DNA from: an uncultured Planctomycetaceae bacterium
Lineage (GTDB): Bacteria; Planctomycetota; Planctomycetia; Isosphaerales; Isosphaeraceae
Reading direction: 5' to 3'
DNA: 64,000 bases
Assembly (NCBI GenBank): GCA_963833985.1
Contig: CAWIAD010000002.1
Location: forward strand, 3,616,001-3,680,000
Shown: in pieces, positions 3,423 to 15,328 of the stretch
Layout of the letters: each line of letters begins with the position of its first letter
Numbering within the stretch: the stretch's first letter is position 1
The notes under the pieces: generated by a model
The model's database searches: none
The model's input: the letters and a program-made list of their open reading frames with translations, nothing else
What the model was told of the DNA's origin: nothing
Program-made: the position numbers and the translations under genes

Positions 3423-4037
3423 ATGAGGCGCGTCCGTTTTAACATCGCCAGCCTGCTCGTTGTCGTCCTGCTTGTCGCTATTGGTTTCGCCGCACTGAGG
3501 GAAGCGAACGAGACGTGGGCTGGCTGGCTCTTTTCCCTGACGCTCTGCGTGCTGCTGATCTCGATCCTTTTCGCCATTCATCGCACAGAATCTAGGCGGG
3601 CGTTCTGGATTGGCGTCGCCCTGTTCGGCTGGATCTACCTGGGGCTCTCCCTGATCCCGTCGATCGAGTCCAGGTTGTTGACGAGGAAGGCGCTCACTTA
3701 CCTTGATTCCATGTTGCCGCGTAGTCCCGTCCTCATCACCGGTCAAGCCTGGGGCGACCTCCAAAACAGCCAGCCAGATCAAACCGTCACAGTCCCATCC
3801 CAGAGTTACCTGATCAGAAATGAGCCGCTCACCGCATACTACAAGTGGCTTCTCAAGGGAGGGAGCGGCACGACCGAGAACTTCGTGAGGATCGGGAATT
3901 CGCTACTGACGTTGTTCATGGCTTGGTTCGGAGGTCAGCTTTCCAGATACCTCTACACGAAGCACCGTAAGTGGAATTCGGGACCGGTCCCAGCACACGT
4001 CCCGACCGAAGGCTCACAGCTATCAAGGAACTGTTAG
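3423..4037 (+). CDS. Planctomycete-type membrane protein (RRxRF N-terminus); paralogue of 5522-6094
   Basis: Several TM segments; shared N- and C-terminal blocks with 5522-6094. Confidence 0.8.
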   Translation: MRRVRFNIASLLVVVLLVAIGFAALREANETWAGWLFSLTLCVLLISILFAIHRTESRRAFWIGVALFGWIYLGLSLIPSIESRLLTRKALTYLDSMLPRSPVLITGQAWGDLQNSQPDQTVTVPSQSYLIRNEPLTAYYKWLLKGGSGTTENFVRIGNSLLTLFMAWFGGQLSRYLYTKHRKWNSGPVPAHVPTEGSQLSRNC

Positions 4038-5521: not shown

Positions 5522-6094
5522 ATGAGGCGATTCCGTTTCCACCTCGGCACCCTGGTGATCCTTGTCCTGGTCCTCGGGGTCGGCTTTGCCGCCCTGCGTG
5601 AGTCGAATGAGACCTGGGACATCATTACCTTCAGCGTCTTGCTGGGTGGTCTACTGACCTCCGTCCTTCTCGCCGTCCATCGAACTGGCTCGAGGAAGGC
5701 ATTCTGGCTGGGGTTTGCTCTCTTCGGATCAGCATACCTGGGGCTGTCTCTGGTCCCCGCCATTGAACCGAGGCTGCTCACGACCAAGGCACTGGCTTTT
5801 CTTGACTCCAAAGTGCCGAGGTCTATCCCAACAGGATTTGCTTACGCCGATTTCGACAACGACGGCAAGATGGACCTATACCTCGCCAACACGTTCCAGG
5901 ACATCACAGCGGCTACTGGGTTGAACTCGGCGGGATTATCGCTGACGGGATCAATCGGAACCACCGACAACTTTGTGAGGATTGGTCACTCGCTCATCGT
6001 TCTAATCGTCGCATTCGTCGGCGGGCAGCTTTCTTGCCATCTCCACGCTAAGAATCGAGAACCAATTGCGGGATCGGTCAATCCACAGCCTTGA
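5522..6094 (+). CDS. Planctomycete-type membrane protein with an FG-GAP/VCBS-like loop
   Basis: Paralogue of 3423-4037; contains ADFDNDGKMDLYLAN. Confidence 0.8.
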   Translation: MRRFRFHLGTLVILVLVLGVGFAALRESNETWDIITFSVLLGGLLTSVLLAVHRTGSRKAFWLGFALFGSAYLGLSLVPAIEPRLLTTKALAFLDSKVPRSIPTGFAYADFDNDGKMDLYLANTFQDITAATGLNSAGLSLTGSIGTTDNFVRIGHSLIVLIVAFVGGQLSCHLHAKNREPIAGSVNPQP

Positions 6095-6964: not shown

Positions 6965-7096
6965 AGGATGGCATCGAGAATTGCAGGTGGCTCCTTCCCA
7001 TCCCGATCAACAAACGGATGCACTCGTCTGACAGCAATGGTACGGGATGTGGGGGAATCAGAGTAGCCTACGAATGCCAAGTTTCTCTGGATGGCG

Positions 7097-7336
7097 TCAG
7101 TTCTTCAGCACTGTGGCACGATCGCAATTCGGGCACAAAGAGTACAAGAGCGGTTCCAGCGACTTCTCGTCGTACTGCGGTCGGGCACAGTCCTGGCAAC
7201 AGGCATGGGAGCACTCTGTGGGCTCCCAGAAATCATGGTCATCGATTTCCTGGTCCTTGAAGCGCCCACAGAACGGACACCTCGTGTTCGAGAGCACCGG
7301 TTCCGGTGCATCAGCGAAGTGGTAATCCTCGGGCAT
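7097..7336 (-). CDS. Small Cys-rich (RING-like Zn-binding) protein
   Basis: CPFC...CSHACCQDC...CPNC; AAGGAG RBS. Confidence 0.55.
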   Translation of the reverse strand: MPEDYHFADAPEPVLSNTRCPFCGRFKDQEIDDHDFWEPTECSHACCQDCARPQYDEKSLEPLLYSLCPNCDRATVLKN

Positions 7337-7397
7337 CTACCATCTCCTTCGGCTAACGACGTTGAACCTTCACCCCATTCTACGTGTAGAGATCTCC

Positions 7398-8255
7398 ATG
7401 ACCAAGCCACTGAAATTGCTGTTCGACGTGTCGTTCCCCAACATCACCCTGTGGCTCCAGGGCTGCGGCACCGTGGAGATCGGCAACGATGCCAACACGG
7501 ACAACTTCATCCGAGCGATCGACGAAGGCGGGATGGTCTGGAGCGGGAATAAGAGCTACAAAAGCCTGAACGATGCTCTTCAGCACTTGGAGAAGGGGCT
7601 CGGACAGATCCTCTTAGACTTGGGACTCGGTGTCCAGCCTGCTGCCAAGAGCAGACAGTCCGCAAGGCGATCCACATCGAAGCAGAATCAAGTCAAGAGG
7701 CAGAAGACTCCATCTGAACCCGCTCTCCCCAAGCAAGTGCAAAAGTTGGAGGAGATCATCGAGGCAATCCAGGGCAAAGAGATTGTTCAGGTCACCCGGC
7801 TGACTGTCGTCAAGAAGCTGTGCGAGAACCCCGATGCTGCAAGTGCATTCGCCTTGTTCCTTGCCAAACAGGCTCAGGGGCGGCTACGCGAGAAACCAGG
7901 CAAAGAGCGATACGTTGAATTGGCAGATCGGGCGATCAAAGAGATTAAATCCTTTCTGGGCGACCCAACTGATGTCCGCAGACAGCGACTCCGATCTCTG
8001 CTCCTGGAGATCCAGGCTGAGCAGAACGAGTGCGTGTCCATCAAGTGGAGTGCAGTGCGGAACATCAAGAGTTGGGACTTGCTGATTGTGGAGAACGCCC
8101 TGCGGTCTATCCTGAATCGCGATGAAGCTCCGCTTTGGTTGTATCAAGCCGCAAGGGATTATGTCGGTAGCACAATGGAGTTCGAGAAGAAATCGATCCC
8201 TCAACTTGAGGAGATCGCTGGTTTCTGGCGAGAGTATTTCTCAGTCAACGAGTAG
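7398..8255 (+). CDS. Hypothetical two-domain protein
   Basis: Two globular regions joined by a Lys/Gln/Arg-rich linker. Confidence 0.75.
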   Translation: MTKPLKLLFDVSFPNITLWLQGCGTVEIGNDANTDNFIRAIDEGGMVWSGNKSYKSLNDALQHLEKGLGQILLDLGLGVQPAAKSRQSARRSTSKQNQVKRQKTPSEPALPKQVQKLEEIIEAIQGKEIVQVTRLTVVKKLCENPDAASAFALFLAKQAQGRLREKPGKERYVELADRAIKEIKSFLGDPTDVRRQRLRSLLLEIQAEQNECVSIKWSAVRNIKSWDLLIVENALRSILNRDEAPLWLYQAARDYVGSTMEFEKKSIPQLEEIAGFWREYFSVNE

Positions 8256-8289
8256 GACGGGATCGAATCGATCTCCAAGAGGTAGAGCT

Positions 8290-8541
8290 ATGATCAGCTT
8301 CACAGACTGGTTCCCACTCGCAACTGTCGGCTTGACCTTCACGATCCTGGGCAGCCTCAAGCTCTGGGGATTGAAGCGGGGAATTGTCGGTGGCGCTAAC
8401 AAACCCTTCGCTCAACGGCTGTGCGGCACCTGACCCACCTGGGAGAGCCGTAGTTTGCGGCTGGGATTTCCACTTCTCTTCCTTGGCATCGGGCTGATCT
8501 ACCTCGGCTGGCTCGGATGGGTGCTGCTTTCGGCGAGGTAA
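8290..8541 (+). CDS. Candidate small membrane selenoprotein (CGT-U), read through TGA 8431-8433
   Basis: The frame continues past TGA into a second TM helix; hairpin 8446-8462; TGA and hairpin are conserved in the copy at 11741. Confidence 0.6.
8446..8462 (+). promoter_or_regulatory. SECIS-like hairpin
   Basis: AGCCGTA-GTT-TGCGGCT; loop starts with GU 19 nt after the UGA. Confidence 0.55.
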
Positions 8542-8584
8542 GGTCGAAGAGAGCTTGTCAGTTGGGAGGCACACAAGGCGGCTT

Positions 8585-9262
8585 ATGGGACTTTCCATCA
8601 CGGTCGGCATCCTCTCTGACCTCCTAGAAAGCGATCCCGAGGGTGCAGAGCTTGTGCGAGGTGACTTTGACATCATCAACGAGATCCTTCGTCTGCACGG
8701 TCTCCCCAAACATGAAGAGCCAACATCGTTACCGATGTTGCGTGACCGATCCGGGGTGACCGGGTTCCCATACTCCTTTCTCCACTATCTCAGGCGCTTC
8801 TACGCGAGCTGGTTGGATCAGAGACAGCAGCCCTTCGTCCGTCGCCTATATGCGAAATGGACTGGACAGCCCGTTCAGATGCCCCCTCCAGTCGTCGAAG
8901 GCGAGAAACCTGCACACGATCCGGTTCTGGAGAAGATCGCTTCACCCAGGCATCACTTGCTCTGGCATTCTGACTGTGAGGGTTACTATGTCCCCATCGA
9001 CTTTCCAAAGGTCTTGGAGTCTCAGAGGATCGACGGGGGAGGCATAGGTTCGAGCGTGCGTTTGCTGGAGGAACTCATCACTGTCGCCGCACCACTTGGA
9101 ATCGTGCTTCGTGACCGCCAACTCAGCGATGCCGATGCGAGTGTAATTGCTGAGGAAGCGGAAAAGGGAGGTCCATACTGGATCGAGCGGCTAGCCTGGC
9201 TCACTCTCTTCGAGGCAGCCCGACTCAGCATCGAGCATCGTGCCGCCATTCACTTTGGGTAG
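8585..9262 (+). CDS. Hypothetical protein
   Basis: ORF with HLLWHSDCEGYYVPIDF block. Confidence 0.8.
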   Translation: MGLSITVGILSDLLESDPEGAELVRGDFDIINEILRLHGLPKHEEPTSLPMLRDRSGVTGFPYSFLHYLRRFYASWLDQRQQPFVRRLYAKWTGQPVQMPPPVVEGEKPAHDPVLEKIASPRHHLLWHSDCEGYYVPIDFPKVLESQRIDGGGIGSSVRLLEELITVAAPLGIVLRDRQLSDADASVIAEEAEKGGPYWIERLAWLTLFEAARLSIEHRAAIHFG

Positions 9263-9544
9263 TGTTCCATTCGAGCGAATAGCATTTCAACGACTTGGAG
9301 CGGAATCGGGTGCCACTTTTCATCCTGAACAACTGGCTTGCGGACATCGGCTGGCTGGCACAAGCGTTGTTATCGGGGTGTCAGGTCGCTAATCAGGGCG
9401 TGAGATTGTACTTTACTTGTAATTGCCGTGGAGGCTCTCAATACGCTTCTGGGCTTCTGGCTGATAGATTCATCCTCCAAGTTGAGAGACGCCTGGGGAG
9501 TCGTATAGAGCGTAGAATGACTCTGATAAACCAGGGGCGACCCC

Positions 9545-10096
9545 ATGACTGACGATGGTCTTGAACCGGTCGAGGTGACGGGTCGGTGGGTCGGGTTCTA
9601 TCGCTACCAATCAGAGCACCTCGGAGTGTTCCCTCTGGTCGCAGAAATCCACCAGGCTGGTGACAGAGTAACCGGTCAGATGTATGACCAAATCACCGAT
9701 GTCTCGGATCTCCTCGAAAGGCTGGTGGAGGCTTTTCAGGACGACATCACCCAGGGGAGGAGGCGAAAGCTGGAGAAAGTGATCGAGCAATTCGGCAAGG
9801 AAAGCGTCGTTGTGACCACACGACTCCCTGACACGTCCGATCTTGACGGTAGGATCACAGGAGGTGTCGTGGAGTTTACGAAAAGCTATCGAGGGGCAAT
9901 GGAAACCGATTGGATCGTCAAAGGGCACGAGGTCGTTTCAGCCCAGAGGAGACGGCACAAAGTGCAGTATTCCGGTCACATGGACCGGGAGAGGATGTGC
10001 ATCGAAGGGGAGTGGATCATCAGGCAAGCGGGGCTGCTCGGTCGATTCTTACCGCCAGAAGCTCGGGGCAGCTTCGAGCTTTACAAGAAGTCGTGA
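9545..10096 (+). CDS. Hypothetical protein
   Basis: 183-aa ORF with beta-rich pattern. Confidence 0.75.
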   Translation: MTDDGLEPVEVTGRWVGFYRYQSEHLGVFPLVAEIHQAGDRVTGQMYDQITDVSDLLERLVEAFQDDITQGRRRKLEKVIEQFGKESVVVTTRLPDTSDLDGRITGGVVEFTKSYRGAMETDWIVKGHEVVSAQRRRHKVQYSGHMDRERMCIEGEWIIRQAGLLGRFLPPEARGSFELYKKS

Positions 10097-10283
10097 GGGT
10101 GGAACGGCTGGGGGCATATCAGACCCGTCTGACGATCTTCAGGAGCCCCCCAGAGCCTCTGTGGGCTCTTCCCTGATGGATTTAACGTCTTGATCCAGAA
10201 CAGCCTGTAGCGGGCTTATAGGACTTCCGATGACAGCGTAGAATTGAATGAGGACATCGTGCCTCTCATCTCGGTCACCGATC

Positions 10284-10910
10284 ATGGTCGTCGATTTAGA
10301 TTTCAGCGACATCGGGAAAGACAAGTCCAAGCCCAGGACATGGCGATGGGCTCGCTGGCTCCTCGTCTATCCCCTCCTGGGTCTTGCTGCTTGCCACATG
10401 CTAATAACTGGCTCACCGGTTCCCCTCTGGTACTCTGAACGCCTGGATCACCCTGCTGTTGTCAAAGCGCTGACCGACAAGACCCTTTTGCTTGCCGATG
10501 GTCGAAGCGTTGCTCTTCCCTTCATCAAGAGGTTGCCAAGGAACGATCCTGTCTTCCTCAAAGCCCTGAAGCACGGCGTCGAAGTCGGGCGAGACGGGGA
10601 GGTGGTCGGGTTGATCAGAGACTATCGAACTTGCGGAAACGATCCCTTTGTCTGGAGAGACAGACGCATCAATCTGAGCGACCTGGCTGGGTTCATGGAC
10701 CCCGATGGCATAGATGATTCGATCGTTCCTCATGAGGTGATCGAGGATCTCAAGGAGAATGAGAACCGGACGCTTGATCGTCATGGATTGCCTTTCTTAT
10801 TGACGAGCAGAATCTCCAAAGTGCGTCAGATCTACGAGGCGTGTGAACGCAGGATCAACGAACAGTCTTATGTCATCCGGTCATTCAGCCGCGAACAGAT
10901 CAAGCAGTAA
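10284..10910 (+). CDS. Hypothetical membrane-anchored protein
   Basis: Single TM near the N-terminus; start uncertain. Confidence 0.6.
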   Translation: MVVDLDFSDIGKDKSKPRTWRWARWLLVYPLLGLAACHMLITGSPVPLWYSERLDHPAVVKALTDKTLLLADGRSVALPFIKRLPRNDPVFLKALKHGVEVGRDGEVVGLIRDYRTCGNDPFVWRDRRINLSDLAGFMDPDGIDDSIVPHEVIEDLKENENRTLDRHGLPFLLTSRISKVRQIYEACERRINEQSYVIRSFSREQIKQ

Positions 10911-10968
10911 GACGAGCGCCCCTGGACTAGAATGACCCTCCCATCGGTGGATTACGCGAGGTCTTGAC

Positions 10969-11595
10969 ATGCCAGCACGAATGACACCTACGGCTTGGGG
11001 GCGGGGCGCAACCAATGCCCTGATTTGTGGCTTGATCTGCCTCGTATGCTGGCTGTTGGTCGCAGTGTTGATTTCGTCTGTCTTCCACCGCTCCCTCTCT
11101 GACTCGTCCTGGCTCGCTTTTGCCATCCTCTGGGGCTTGATCTTCTTGCTGTTCTTGGGCACCTGGCTCTTCGGCTTGAATGCCGGTGGTCGTGTGCTCT
11201 TGGACTGTGGACCTCACCCGACAAGAGTTCTGTTTCTGTTCAACGCGGCACTCTGGCTAGTCATGGGGCTCACTGGAGTCATGACGTTTGGTTCGTTGTT
11301 TGGGTCTCTCCGTCTTTTCAGTCCAATGTGCGGTGCTTCCTTTGCGGTTTACTTCCTGATCATGGCGACGGGTCGGCTCCAGATTCGAGAGGGTGGGCTC
11401 TGGCAGTACTGGGGATTGCTGCGGTGGGACAAGATCGAGTCTCTCCAATGGAGTGGTGACTTCACGCTGCTGGTGAAGGGGAAGACCCGCTTCCCGCTCT
11501 TCGGTCGGGGCGCTCTGCCAGTTCCGCCAGAGCAGAAGCAAGCCGTGGAGGAACTGTTGCAGAAGCACTGCCCGGTCTGGGATCGTGACTTCTAG
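10969..11595 (+). CDS. Multi-pass membrane protein with VWDRDF tail
   Basis: 4 TM segments plus a soluble C-terminal domain. Confidence 0.7.
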   Translation: MPARMTPTAWGRGATNALICGLICLVCWLLVAVLISSVFHRSLSDSSWLAFAILWGLIFLLFLGTWLFGLNAGGRVLLDCGPHPTRVLFLFNAALWLVMGLTGVMTFGSLFGSLRLFSPMCGASFAVYFLIMATGRLQIREGGLWQYWGLLRWDKIESLQWSGDFTLLVKGKTRFPLFGRGALPVPPEQKQAVEELLQKHCPVWDRDF

Positions 11596-11602
11596 CCCGT
11601 CG

Positions 11603-11835
11603 CTGATCTGCTTGCCCTCCATTGCACTGGCAACGACCGGCTCGACCTTCGCGATCCTCGGCTGAATTACGTTGGGGGGATTGCGAAGAGGCATCGTAAG
11701 AGGTGCTGGTGAACCCTTCGCTCAACGGCTGTGTGGCATGTGACCCACCTGGAAGAGCCGCAGTCTGCGGCTGGGATTTCCAATTCTTGTACTGTGGCAC
11801 TGGGATGATCACCCCTGGCTGGCTATTTCGTGTAA
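11603..11835 (+). pseudogene. Decayed copy of the 8290-8541 gene
   Basis: Near-identical core CCCTTCGCTCAACGGCTGTG..TGACCCACCTGG; has an extra upstream TGA and a downstream frameshift. Confidence 0.75.
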
Positions 11836-11984
11836 GGTGCAGCGAGTCTGGTAAGACTCGTCGCCCACAAAAAGAACACTCATGCTCGGTTGGAACCGGC
11901 AGAAGGAGAATTACCGGTCGCAGAGCCGCTGTTGAGTCACTCACACCTAAGTTTGTGGTTAAAAGTGCGATTCGCAGTATTTTG

Positions 11985-12012
11985 TTGTGACGGGCGGGAA
12001 TTTTGATATGAT
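11985..12012 (+). promoter_or_regulatory. sigma70-like promoter for the HTH/primase module
   Basis: TTGTGA-N16-TATGAT with TGn extended -10, followed by an AAGGAGG RBS. Confidence 0.5.
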
Positions 12013-12039
12013 ACTACTATCTAAACACAAGGAGGTGTT

Positions 12040-12249
12040 GTGATGGTAGACCTGAGCGAGTTCGAGATGCTCAACGTGCGAGATGCGATGCGATTGCTAC
12101 GGCTGAGCCGTACGATGGTGTACGACTTGTTGAAATGTGGTGCGTTGCCAGGGATCAAGATCGGGGGAACCTGGCGAATTCCCGTGGCTGACCTGCGGCG
12201 ATGGCTCGACGCGAATCGGGTGATCGTGCCCGAGACCACAGCGGACTGA
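12040..12249 (+). CDS. Excisionase/AlpA-like helix-turn-helix protein
   Basis: MLNVRDAMRLLRLSRTMVYDLLKCGALPGIKIGGTWRIP pattern. Confidence 0.9.
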   Translation: MMVDLSEFEMLNVRDAMRLLRLSRTMVYDLLKCGALPGIKIGGTWRIPVADLRRWLDANRVIVPETTAD

Positions 12250-12433
12250 TAGCAACATGCCGATCGGCAGTTCACCTTCGCACAGGGTGGACGCCACATG
12301 GTCGGCAGGCTCGATGCCATGTGCATCCGATGGACTCCAGGACGGAGCCCATTGAAGCACAATGACCCGGTGGGAAGAGCCTCCCACCGGGTCACATGTG
12401 CGACTCTCATCTTTGCCACACGAGAGTATCAAT

Positions 12434-15328
12434 ATGAATGTAGCATGGAAGCAGAAAGATTTCTACAAAAATATCGACCAATCTTTAATTACCGAACCCG
12501 ACTTCGACTCCATCAACCAGGCGTTGCACGTCATCTGCGACCCCGGTGACGTGCATGAAGTTAGGGTGGCGGACACCAACCTGGGCGTGTTGGCGGGTTG
12601 GTTCGATGACCTGGAGGCGATGACCCTAGCCATCCTAGACCTTACCAGGGGCGAGGGAAAGTACGAGGGCAAGTACGGGTTCAAGGAGTTGAGGAGGTTG
12701 CCTGAGTCGGTGTACCTTTCTCTCAATCCAGTCACCGACGATCTCCTCGCCTTGGTGGGAAACCGGATCAAGGTATGCGACACAACGACCAAGGATCACG
12801 ATATCGTCGCCATCAAACGGCTGTTCCTCGATGGCGATCCGTGGAGACGCAAAGGCGTCTCTTCGACTGACGCGGGTCATTCACTGGCGATCACCAAGAT
12901 GATCGAGGTGAGGGATTACCTGATAGGGATGGGGTTCGCTCAACCGTGCCTTGCGGACAGCGGAAACGGTGCCCACGTGATCCATGCCACGCTGTTGGAC
13001 AACACACCCGATGATCGGGCACTTGTGGAGGCATACGTCAAGGCGGTCTCCCTCCGGTTCGGTGTGTCCTGCAAGCACGGAGAGAAGAACAAGCCGCCTA
13101 CCCCTGGCTACGACGACACGATCATCAACATCGACGCCGCCGTCTTCAACCCGTCCCGGATCGTGACCGCCTACGGCACAATGAAACGCAAGGGCACTGA
13201 CATCCCGAAGCGACCGCACAGGCTCTCCCGCATTCTGGAGTCGCCGGGTCGGCTGGAAATTGTGGAACGAGGTGTGATCGAGAAGGTCATCGCCGACCTT
13301 ACTCCCAAGTACACGATCACAGTGAAGATGGAGGCGACTGAGCAGAGTCCAGGTGGTGAAGCTGCCTTGGAGGATGAACAGTTCGGGTTCGGCTCAGTCG
13401 ATTCCGATGAGTTGTGGGCGCAACCGACAGACGAACCACTCAAGCCCATCGCTGGGTTTGACCTGGCAGCCCAACTGGAGGAGATGGGACTTCTGGCGGG
13501 GCAACCGCAGATCGCTGGAGTCTTCACGCACTACCCGGTCCAGGAATGCCCATTCAACCCGGAACACAAGAAGGTCAGGCTGTCTCAGCACCGGAGCGGC
13601 ACCCTCACCTACCTCTGCCCGCATCACTCTTGCCAGGGCAAGAAAGAAGGCTGCGATCGAAAGACCGCCCGTGATTACTTCGCCCATTACGGTGTGACGA
13701 TACCCGTTGAGACTAAGACCGAGAAGCCGAAGCAGGAGAAGACCAGCCGCGTGTCCTTGTTGGTTCAACTCGCCCGGCAGCACTGCACGATCACCAAGGA
13801 TTCCGCCACCCATGTCGTGAACGCCACGTTCATGGACCTGAAACAGCGGATCACTTGCCCCGTGGATTCACAATCCTTCCGCCACTGGCTCGTACGGACG
13901 TTCAGGGAGCAAACGGGCAAGATCATCAAGAGTTCTGAAGTATCAGACGCCGTGTTGAACCTGATGGCGTGCTACAGTGCCTACGTCACCACCTACCGGC
14001 GAATCACACGCCTCGATGATGTTATCTACATCGATACGCTCAACGAGGGAAAGGTCGTCAAGATCACGTGCGATGGCTGGCAGATTCTAGAAACCTGCCC
14101 TGACGGCTTGGTCTTCGAGACCAGGAAGGATATGGGCAAGTTGGCACTGCCCAGGCGGGGCGGGAGCCTCGATGACCTGTGGGAGTTCATCAACGTCAGG
14201 CAAGAGGATCGGGAGACCTACCTGTGTTTCCTTCTCGCCAGCCTGGCGGGACGGAAGCCGTACCCGATCTTGCTGGGCAACGGACAGGAGGGTTCGGCGA
14301 AGACCACGTTCATGAACTTCACCGTCGCCATGATCGACCCGTGCATCCGTGCCAACGGCAAGGACGTGCCGGATACGAGGCGTGATCTGGTGATTCAGGC
14401 ACGCAACCGGCACTTGATCGCCTATGACAACGTGTCCCGCATTTCCGGCGACATGAGCGATGCCTACTGTCGATTGAGCACGGGTGCCGGGTTCACCGTG
14501 CGGGGACTCTATAAAGACGATGAGGAAATGGTCTTCGGCGGTGCAAACCCCGTGCTGTTCAACGGCATCCCGGAGTTGGGCGACAAGAGCGACTTTCTGT
14601 CCCGCTCGATCCGGGTCCGCTTGCCCAAGATCCCGCCAGAAAGACGGAAGACCGAGCGGTATCTGGAGGAAGGGTGGGATGAGCGTGGACCAGGCATCCT
14701 CGGGACACTCTATGACCTGATTGCCAACGGGCTCAAGCACGAGGCGTCAGTAGTGGAAGATGGCAGGGCTCCTCGGATGATCGACAACTACCAGTGGTTT
14801 CGAGCCTGCGAGATGGGGACAGGGTTGCAGTTGGCTGATCGTTTCCGCGAGAACTACGATACGCTGATCCGAGAGGTTGCCTTCGAGACCCTCACGGGCA
14901 AGGCGGTGCTGGCGTTCATGAAGGATCGCAGATTGACGAACTGGGGAGAGATGCCCGAGGACTGGGAAATCTGGCGGGGCACGATGTCCGAATTGTACGA
15001 GGGCATCAAGCCCAAGTGGCTGGAGGTCTGCGATGGCTCCACCAAGCAGAAGAACCTCCTTCCCGGCTCTCCTGCCCGGCTGACAAACGCCATCGACGCC
15101 ATCTCTTCGTCCCTGGTCGCCAACGGCATCGTCTTCACCCGAGGTCGATCGAATGACCAGCGCTGGGCACAGATCGACGCCAGGGCGTATTTCCAAGGCG
15201 AAGTCGAGGAAGAGCCGGTGTACCTCTGGGATTCTCCACAGGATGTCGCCCAAGATCGTTGGGCAGGATTCGCAGAGGTCATGACGGACGAGGTGACGAC
15301 TCCGCTCCACTCAGAGGTGACGACGTGA
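12434..15328 (+). CDS. Primase (AEP-like)-Zn finger-P-loop helicase/ATPase replication protein
   Basis: LFLDGD, DSGNGAH, CPFNPEH/CPHHSC, Walker A GQEGSAKTT, Walker B AYDNVS. Confidence 0.8.
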   Translation: MNVAWKQKDFYKNIDQSLITEPDFDSINQALHVICDPGDVHEVRVADTNLGVLAGWFDDLEAMTLAILDLTRGEGKYEGKYGFKELRRLPESVYLSLNPVTDDLLALVGNRIKVCDTTTKDHDIVAIKRLFLDGDPWRRKGVSSTDAGHSLAITKMIEVRDYLIGMGFAQPCLADSGNGAHVIHATLLDNTPDDRALVEAYVKAVSLRFGVSCKHGEKNKPPTPGYDDTIINIDAAVFNPSRIVTAYGTMKRKGTDIPKRPHRLSRILESPGRLEIVERGVIEKVIADLTPKYTITVKMEATEQSPGGEAALEDEQFGFGSVDSDELWAQPTDEPLKPIAGFDLAAQLEEMGLLAGQPQIAGVFTHYPVQECPFNPEHKKVRLSQHRSGTLTYLCPHHSCQGKKEGCDRKTARDYFAHYGVTIPVETKTEKPKQEKTSRVSLLVQLARQHCTITKDSATHVVNATFMDLKQRITCPVDSQSFRHWLVRTFREQTGKIIKSSEVSDAVLNLMACYSAYVTTYRRITRLDDVIYIDTLNEGKVVKITCDGWQILETCPDGLVFETRKDMGKLALPRRGGSLDDLWEFINVRQEDRETYLCFLLASLAGRKPYPILLGNGQEGSAKTTFMNFTVAMIDPCIRANGKDVPDTRRDLVIQARNRHLIAYDNVSRISGDMSDAYCRLSTGAGFTVRGLYKDDEEMVFGGANPVLFNGIPELGDKSDFLSRSIRVRLPKIPPERRKTERYLEEGWDERGPGILGTLYDLIANGLKHEASVVEDGRAPRMIDNYQWFRACEMGTGLQLADRFRENYDTLIREVAFETLTGKAVLAFMKDRRLTNWGEMPEDWEIWRGTMSELYEGIKPKWLEVCDGSTKQKNLLPGSPARLTNAIDAISSSLVANGIVFTRGRSNDQRWAQIDARAYFQGEVEEEPVYLWDSPQDVAQDRWAGFAEVMTDEVTTPLHSEVTT

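Follow-up and report, generated by a model that had tools for sequence, protein, structure and literature searches.

A gene of 83 codons in the window, the 64,000-nt stretch of planctomycetal DNA analysed here, very probably encodes a small membrane selenoprotein whose in-frame UGA at position 8431 is decoded as selenocysteine (Sec). From comparison of homologous loci we place the probability of this decoding at about 0.96. The frame begins with the ATG at 8290, ends with the TAA at 8539-8541 and is open throughout when the TGA is read as Sec (U), which gives an 83-residue product with U48. The first-pass annotation had described an open reading frame crossing the TGA at 8431, ending in TAA and carrying a second hydrophobic helix in frame after the UGA, and both the sequence and the coordinates match that description. 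Around the recoded codon the protein reads C45-G-T-U48-P-T-W and leads directly into this second hydrophobic helix. The features of the locus are as follows.

8277..8283, plus strand: Shine-Dalgarno-like AAGAGGT, 6 nt before the ATG, read from the sequence
8290..8541, plus strand: gene of 83 codons, number 48 being the in-frame TGA; its product is predicted to be a membrane selenoprotein with two helices
8311..8373, plus strand: predicted transmembrane helix 1 (hydropathy), residues ~8-28, holding the invariant Lys24 (codon 8359-8361)
8374..8463, plus strand: basic loop, residues 29-58 (GIVGG..KP..RLCGTUPTW), predicted to be cytoplasmic by the positive-inside rule
8422..8433, plus strand: CxxU motif, with Cys45 (TGC 8422-8424) and Sec48 (TGA 8431-8433)
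8446..8462, plus strand: bacterial SECIS hairpin with a 7-pair stem and a GUU loop that starts 19 nt past the UGA
8464..8532, plus strand: predicted transmembrane helix 2 (hydropathy), residues ~59-81, which only read-through of the UGA would produce
11588..11830, plus strand: second copy, a pseudogene, with Sec-TGA 11741-11743 and hairpin 11756-11772

Gene callers stop at the TGA, so the gene is cut in half in databases. Among 308 homologous database proteins retrieved, 125 end at the Sec codon as fragments of ~47 amino acids, and a search with the single protein returned 110 proteins, 88 of which end at the residue before the TGA. These 47-residue fragments represent a systematic annotation error that is corrected by reading the TGA as Sec. 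Upstream of the start, purine-rich AGGA, GAGG or GGAG stretches are present in most TGA-form homologues, as judged by eye. A scan for promoters and terminators found one sigma-70-like and one terminator-like site, at chance level.

Evidence for selenocysteine at the UGA

The sequence AGCCGTA-GTT-TGCGGCT behind the UGA had initially been proposed to fit the bacterial SECIS (bSECIS) model on account of a loop that starts with GU 19 nt after the UGA. This was confirmed, and the element conforms to the published consensus model for SelB-decoded selenoproteins, as given in PMC13188914. We applied that model with a script of our own that considers a single uninterrupted stem only, rather than with bSECISearch, and used as background the TGA stops of long open reading frames in the host (a one-in-four sample, 1697 stops). 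Of 42 unique TGA loci, 38 satisfy the model; so do 2 of the 22 Cys loci, a pair of close relatives, and 168 of the 1697 host stops (~10%). The same stem is present in the four TGA loci that fail it, where its energy is -7.0 to -7.3 kcal/mol, compared with -8.3 kcal/mol in the window gene. As a fold alone the hairpin is not unusual (z of -0.6 for a 60-nt piece and -1.8 for a 31-nt piece). Because the fold is ordinary and about one host stop in ten passes the model, the case for Sec rests on comparative data.

The comparative data separate the two forms of the gene. The core sequence motif of the hairpin is present in 40 of 42 TGA loci and in none of the 22 Cys loci, and dS is about sixfold lower in the stem codons (0.235) than outside them (1.43-1.47). 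Third-position entropy falls to 0.29 and 0.17 at two Arg codons of the stem, against 1.1-2.0 at fourfold sites outside it. An alignment of 29 rows has 97.5% of its cells paired, with changes on both sides at two pairs. Against column shuffles the covariation is weak, with 30-76 of 500 shuffles matching the observed values, and most of the loci are related; it lies well above that of slid registers. A further compensatory pair occurs in L093, and in L110 the stem is a different, unrelated one (GACGACC-GUU-GGUCGUC) that keeps the 19-nt distance. Two loci outside the 42 and 22 counted above behave differently from each other: the stem of L108 is bulged and does not satisfy the strict model, and L109 passes. 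Across the aligned loci, the hairpin is demonstrably kept only in TGA forms.

Constraint on the protein continues past the UGA. For 38 in-register TGA loci, with the second copy in the window left out, dN/dS is 0.21 over the 40 codons before the TGA and 0.22 over codons +11 to +30, which lie beyond the hairpin, whereas the shifted frames give 0.87 and 2.62. Near-saturation of synonymous sites and the kinship of the loci make these ratios rough, but the contrast between frames is clear. An in-frame stop within 90 nt after the TGA occurs in 0 of the 38 loci, as against 27 and 9 loci for the two shifted frames. As far as substitution patterns can establish it, the frame past the UGA is open and under purifying selection.

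Two opposite outcomes had been named in advance as telling: homologues with Cys aligned to the TGA on the one hand and, on the other, homologues with Trp or variable residues there, or that truly end at this codon. Homologues proved to carry Cys, or TGA followed by the constrained frame. A profile search with 25 sequences yielded 442 proteins, of which the best 120 were listed and 114 of these were new; Cys occupies position 48 in all 82 parsed new matches among these best 120 of 442 (protein records; 32 of the 114 were not parsed by the pattern). At the DNA level, 103 loci reduced to 69 unique sites, two of them truncated and skipped, and the codon at the site is TGA in 42, TGC or TGT in 22, and TAA, TCA and CCA in one each.

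The TAA, TCA and CCA codons belong to three loci in the clade of the window gene, and six database proteins have Ser, Pro, Arg or Trp at the site, in parsed classes that include mis-parsed rows. Frameshifted copies are also frequent among close relatives. Such broken or altered copies suggest either that some copies are weakly selected or that the assemblies contain errors. Most replacement residues are one base change away from TGA, as expected if TGA genes have decayed or contain read errors, and not if variation is tolerated.

The absence of Sec machinery from the host and its relatives had been named as grounds for rejecting the proposal. In the host genome selA, selB and selD score above curated cut-offs, and selC is present as a tRNA-Sec of 80.7 bits. 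The host selD gene and a formate dehydrogenase gene have one in-frame TGA each. Read from the sequence, the hairpin behind the formate dehydrogenase UGA is GUGCCCG-GUC-UGGGCAC, with a GUC loop that starts at 19 nt, the same spacing as in the window; the selD hairpin lies at 33 nt.

Elsewhere, 18 other TGA-form genomes were tested: selA is above cut-off in 17 and the eighteenth has selB, which was found in all 11 of the 18 checked for it. Among Cys-form genomes, selA and selB occur together in 1 of 5. These genomes are metagenome-assembled genomes (MAGs), many of them incomplete, and co-occurrence serves as supporting evidence only. Within Planctomycetota it says little, because selA is above cut-off in 285 of 401 genomes sampled across the phylum. 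Sec use in Planctomycetota is widespread yet patchy. In one family of the phylum, selA was detected in only 1 of 20 genomes.

Two other ways of accounting for the UGA have to be weighed against Sec. It could be a true stop, which would leave a single-helix peptide of 47 residues ending in CGT and would make the downstream similarity either a leftover or the mark of an RNA function. The choice of gene callers to end there, the frequency of broken copies and the lack of significance of the hairpin on its own would all agree with this; the dN/dS of 0.22 past the hairpin, the frame free of stops for 90 nt in 38 of 38 loci, the commonness of full-length Cys homologues and the absence of the core hairpin motif from the Cys forms do not, and we regard a true stop as very improbable. 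A 47-residue by-product under low selenium is plausible. If a variant code or leaky read-through were at work, the UGA would be decoded as Trp or as some other amino acid, and a single database protein does have Trp at the site (P0237). The only tRNA with a TCA anticodon in the host is tRNA-Sec, whereas tRNA-Trp has CCA; TGA routinely ends long host reading frames (1697 in the one-in-four sample); and all 82 parsed homologues from the best 120 of 442 align a Cys with the UGA. The chance that this last explanation is correct is close to negligible.

The family and its relation to known selenoproteins

The first-pass annotation did not recognise the 83-residue family, and no family library names it. 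Pfam returned weak unrelated matches only. NCBIfam (June 2026) returned nothing for the window protein and weak unrelated matches for at most three members of two family alignments (A1 and A4). No meaningful match was found in PHROGs, PADLOC or PDB sequences, nor in Rfam over positions 7000-12500. A natural Cys homologue used as query against the ESM Atlas found its nearest clusters at 0.88; these are unnamed and provide a lead only. The family is absent, by name or by model, from the 119 prokaryotic selenoprotein families in Table 1 of PMC13188914, where entries with only a CDD or PANTHER identifier or with no accession were compared by name alone. Its motifs do not occur in four supplementary files of deep-Sep (PMC12013277). 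The literature searched, an incomplete collection that includes part of BSepDB (PMC13326102), holds no description of it. The family is thus absent from the libraries and lists checked.

In its decoding signals, the gene resembles other selenoproteins that depend on SelB and a bSECIS, such as FdhA and SelD. It has an in-frame UGA, a 3-nt loop that starts with G and then U, a stem of 7 pairs, Cys homologues and a host with selA, selB, selC and selD. Unlike the FdhA and SelD types, it has no similarity to any modelled family, and its product is predicted to be an 83-residue two-helix membrane hairpin rather than a soluble enzyme. Table 1 of PMC13188914 also lists CxxU families (SELENOW-like PF10262, AhpD/CMD-like PF02627, GrdA and Prx-SUH), with which the present family shares Sec as the second residue of CxxU and the existence of CxxC homologues. 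It differs from them in having no Pfam or NCBIfam match, a predicted membrane helical hairpin and Cys homologues that are mostly Cx5C.

Most characterised members of the bacterial selenoproteome have a thioredoxin-like fold, according to PMC13188914. The family described here would add an integral-membrane member to that set, one with a standard decoding mechanism and an unusual architecture. A tiny protein with natural Sec, CxxC, Cx5C and single-Cys versions is also a convenient system for the question of Sec versus Cys. The eukaryotic proteins SELENOK and SELENOS are small and membrane-anchored, with one helix and with Sec on the cytoplasmic side near the C-terminus, whereas here Sec lies in a loop between two helices.

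The cysteine pattern of the family is more varied than had been expected. All 42 TGA rows have Cys at -3. The proposal that CxxC homologues would align with CxxU held for 45 of 212 rows, but the largest Cys subfamily, with 108 of the 212, is Cx5C; the remainder comprise the 42 CxxU rows, 14 rows with neither partner and 3 others. A third Cys stands 11-12 residues upstream in at least 15 rows. In a FastTree tree, which is unrooted, was built from few columns and gives no direction of change between Sec and Cys, all 42 Sec rows fall together with 12 Cys rows in a group of weak support (63%), at least six changes between Sec and Cys are needed, and Cx5C forms a strongly supported clade (96%).

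TGA forms are found in Isosphaeraceae, Gemmataceae and other Planctomycetota, and in one verrucomicrobial and one acidobacterial (Blastocatellia) MAG. Cys forms are found in Planctomycetota and in Pirellulales, Ignavibacteriota and Chthonomonadales MAGs. The distribution is patchy, with members in 5 of 40 relatives and in 6 of 400 other Planctomycetota sampled, and none was detected in 400 further Verrucomicrobiota or 400 further Acidobacteriota, where 13 candidates were scored per genome.

Some members depart from the usual length or cysteine arrangement. One subclade (L051, L055, L077, L078 and P0230) runs 74-77 residues past the Sec position, with an apparent third hydrophobic helix. Among the top 8000 candidates scored for longer fused forms, three isolated proteins were found, and P0243 has an extension that looks by eye like a histidine phosphatase; none of these forms recurred. 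Distant members (P0229, P0253, P0269, P0275, P0277 and P0280) have rearranged cysteines, including CGAC, CGQC, CATCP..HH and a downstream C-P-x3-C, so the partner ligand can also sit after position 48.

Predicted architecture and possible function

Hydropathy and charge suggest how the protein would sit in the membrane. The loop of the window copy has 6 Lys and Arg against 1 Asp or Glu, and over 206 family rows the mean net charge is +4.8 for the loop and -1.0 for the N-terminus. A basic loop with an acidic N-terminus predicts that the N-terminus is outside, the loop inside and the C-terminus outside. In this predicted arrangement, both termini would be outside the cell membrane, and the basic loop with its short helix would lie on the inner membrane face. 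An AlphaFold2 model with Cys at position 48 has a pLDDT of 91.8 and helices at residues 4-29, 40-45 and 54-82.

Searches with the predicted structure recovered only generic helical hairpins and no thioredoxin, AhpD or other redox fold. Foldseek gave no match at E up to 0.001, and the best VIA-align Z of 7.6, obtained with a query that is itself a predicted two-helix hairpin with a short loop helix, falls among generic helical hairpins. Invariant residues in 25 diverse rows (alignment A2) include K24, GIVGG, K38, G46, C/U48, P49 and W51. In the 65 Cys-form rows of alignment A4, which were picked for Cys48, K24 is the only other invariant column. No conserved Cys is present in helix 1 in either alignment.

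We infer a redox role for the CxxU protein from the conservation of this motif. Sec is favoured in redox catalysis and CxxU is a common redox motif, according to PMC13188914. The reading we prefer, at somewhat better than even odds, is a small selenol or thiol redox catalyst on a cytoplasmic loop at the inner membrane face. The UGA and the conserved hairpin would direct SelB to insert Sec, and the resulting 83-residue protein would cross the inner membrane twice. U48, or C48 in homologues, would be the attacking residue and would reduce a membrane-associated oxidant such as a lipid peroxide, a quinone or a disulfide. The intermediate would then be resolved to a selenenylsulfide or disulfide by Cys45 or, in the main Cys subfamily, by the Cys that precedes position 48 by six residues, and a cytoplasmic thiol system would recycle it. 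Invariant Lys24 may stabilise an anion. Provided that Sec is inserted, we give this sequence of attack, resolution and recycling, which is drawn from the alignments, a modest edge over its alternatives.

The C-terminal Sec or Cys of the motif, at position 48, stays in place, whereas its partner Cys shifts or disappears, and this favours a redox catalyst. Peroxiredoxin- and AhpD-type enzymes likewise combine an attacking residue with a dispensable resolving Cys. A bolder version, which we advance only tentatively, is that the protein is a minimal, stand-alone and mobile membrane selenoenzyme of a new fold class, in which the intramembrane Lys would activate the loop selenolate against lipid peroxides or quinones at the inner membrane face. 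If true, bacteria would possess a membrane-protecting selenoprotein unrelated to GPX, Prx or AhpD, and the CxxU, CxxC, Cx5C and single-Cys versions would allow a direct test of why Sec is kept.

The same movable partner Cys, together with the third Cys of some members, would fit metal binding too. The C/U pair might bind a soft metal or metalloid (Hg, Cu(I), Ag or As(III)) at the inner membrane face and either hold it there as a sink or pass it on, in the manner of the two cytoplasmic Cys residues of MerT. That pair, Cys76/Cys82, has the Cx5C spacing (PMC5715351) found in the largest subfamily here (108/212), and the protein resembles MerT, MerE and MerF in being a small membrane protein. In addition, Table 1 of PMC13188914 lists a predicted "putative mercuric transport protein" selenoprotein with PF02411 and C/SxxU. 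The third Cys in 15 or more rows, the patchy occurrence of the gene, its position in a low-GC island here and the placement of one Cys form between attC-like sites, as in resistance cassettes, would agree with a metal role as well. In contrast to the Mer proteins, helix 1 has no Cys pair, which MerT and MerE require for transport (PMC5715351); no mer operon was found in the neighbourhoods scanned; and PF02411 matched neither 25 members at E up to 1 nor the host genome. Moreover, 14 rows keep one Cys only. The 207 neighbouring open reading frames, picked by length at 46 loci, include no mer, ars or cop enzyme or transporter; among them, metals are hinted at only by one ArsR-type helix-turn-helix gene and TerC genes close to two related loci. 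On balance we hold a soft-metal function to be possible but rather unlikely.

Instead of a free catalyst, the selenoprotein could be part of a larger membrane protein whose gene lies elsewhere, as a subunit for redox sensing or regulation; its very small size and its conserved Gly-rich loop with surface Trp7 and Trp51 would suit such a role. In one Cys subclade the gene immediately upstream codes for an ECF-type sigma factor (L087, with the same upstream gene in L064 and L083), which also speaks for regulation. However, no partner gene travels with the family across phyla, and the gene is found on its own in scattered genomes (in 6 of the 400 other Planctomycetota sampled); we consider a subunit role improbable. 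The preferred redox reading has points against it as well: the fold searches recovered no redox fold, no reductase or other partner gene is conserved beside family members, and no neighbourhood is conserved across phyla.

Gene copies and genomic setting

The host genome of 10.16 Mb (~65% GC, 96% complete) contains three copies of the gene. The second copy, 11588..11830 in the window, had been put forward as a conserved, diverged duplicate. Its C-G-M-TGA at 11741 and its hairpin AGCCGCA-GTC-TGCGGCT at 11756-11772 are present as described, but it is a decayed pseudogene and not a conserved gene. The aligned start has no ATG, a premature in-frame TGA stands at 11663-11665, and one nucleotide is inserted after the hairpin, near 11793. 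As a pseudogene it is weak support for the Sec proposal. The change from U.G to C-G between the two stems, also noted earlier, is a real difference between the copies; C-G, however, is the family norm (28 of 29 rows), and the U.G pair of the window gene is the rare state. A third copy, at C2:4749984-4750226 on the minus strand of the host genome, is intact and has both the TGA and the hairpin.

The selenoprotein gene lies in a low-GC island, since the window averages ~57.6% GC (55-62% along its length) against ~65% for the genome. Downstream of the second copy are an HTH_17 excisionase-like gene (12040-12249, plus strand) and an open reading frame for 988 amino acids (12362-15328, plus strand), the latter with no Pfam match and primase- or helicase-like by eye. 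The low GC content, the excisionase-like gene and this long frame suggest an integrated mobile element. No plasmid match was found.

Shared neighbours occur only among close relatives and consist of an upstream hypothetical gene and genes of the island. The hypothetical gene, at 7362-8255 (plus strand) in the window, encodes 297 amino acids and has no Pfam or PADLOC match. Counting redundant loci, close relatives have a homologue of it in the vicinity of the selenoprotein gene at ~20 loci; in more distant relatives none was seen there. Two paralogous membrane reading frames that start with MRRxRF, one of them with an FG-GAP repeat, are found at 3423-4037 and 5522-6094 (plus strand), and their relatives recur near the selenoprotein gene in Isosphaeraceae loci.

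Flanks resembling attC were found in none of the 38 TGA forms checked. At four loci (L069-L072), a Cx5C Cys homologue lies between attC-like sites, with GTTAGGC upstream and GCCTAAC to GTTGAGC (99 nt) downstream. One of these, L070, has four attC-like repeats, at 1085, 2386, 2758 and 3178, beside a GNAT gene and resembles an integron cassette. The location of the Cx5C form between attC-like sites is consistent with a stand-alone adaptive cassette. In a planctomycetal MAG (L098:270-7065), about eight paralogous short membrane reading frames with shared N- and C-terminal repeats surround a CxxC homologue.
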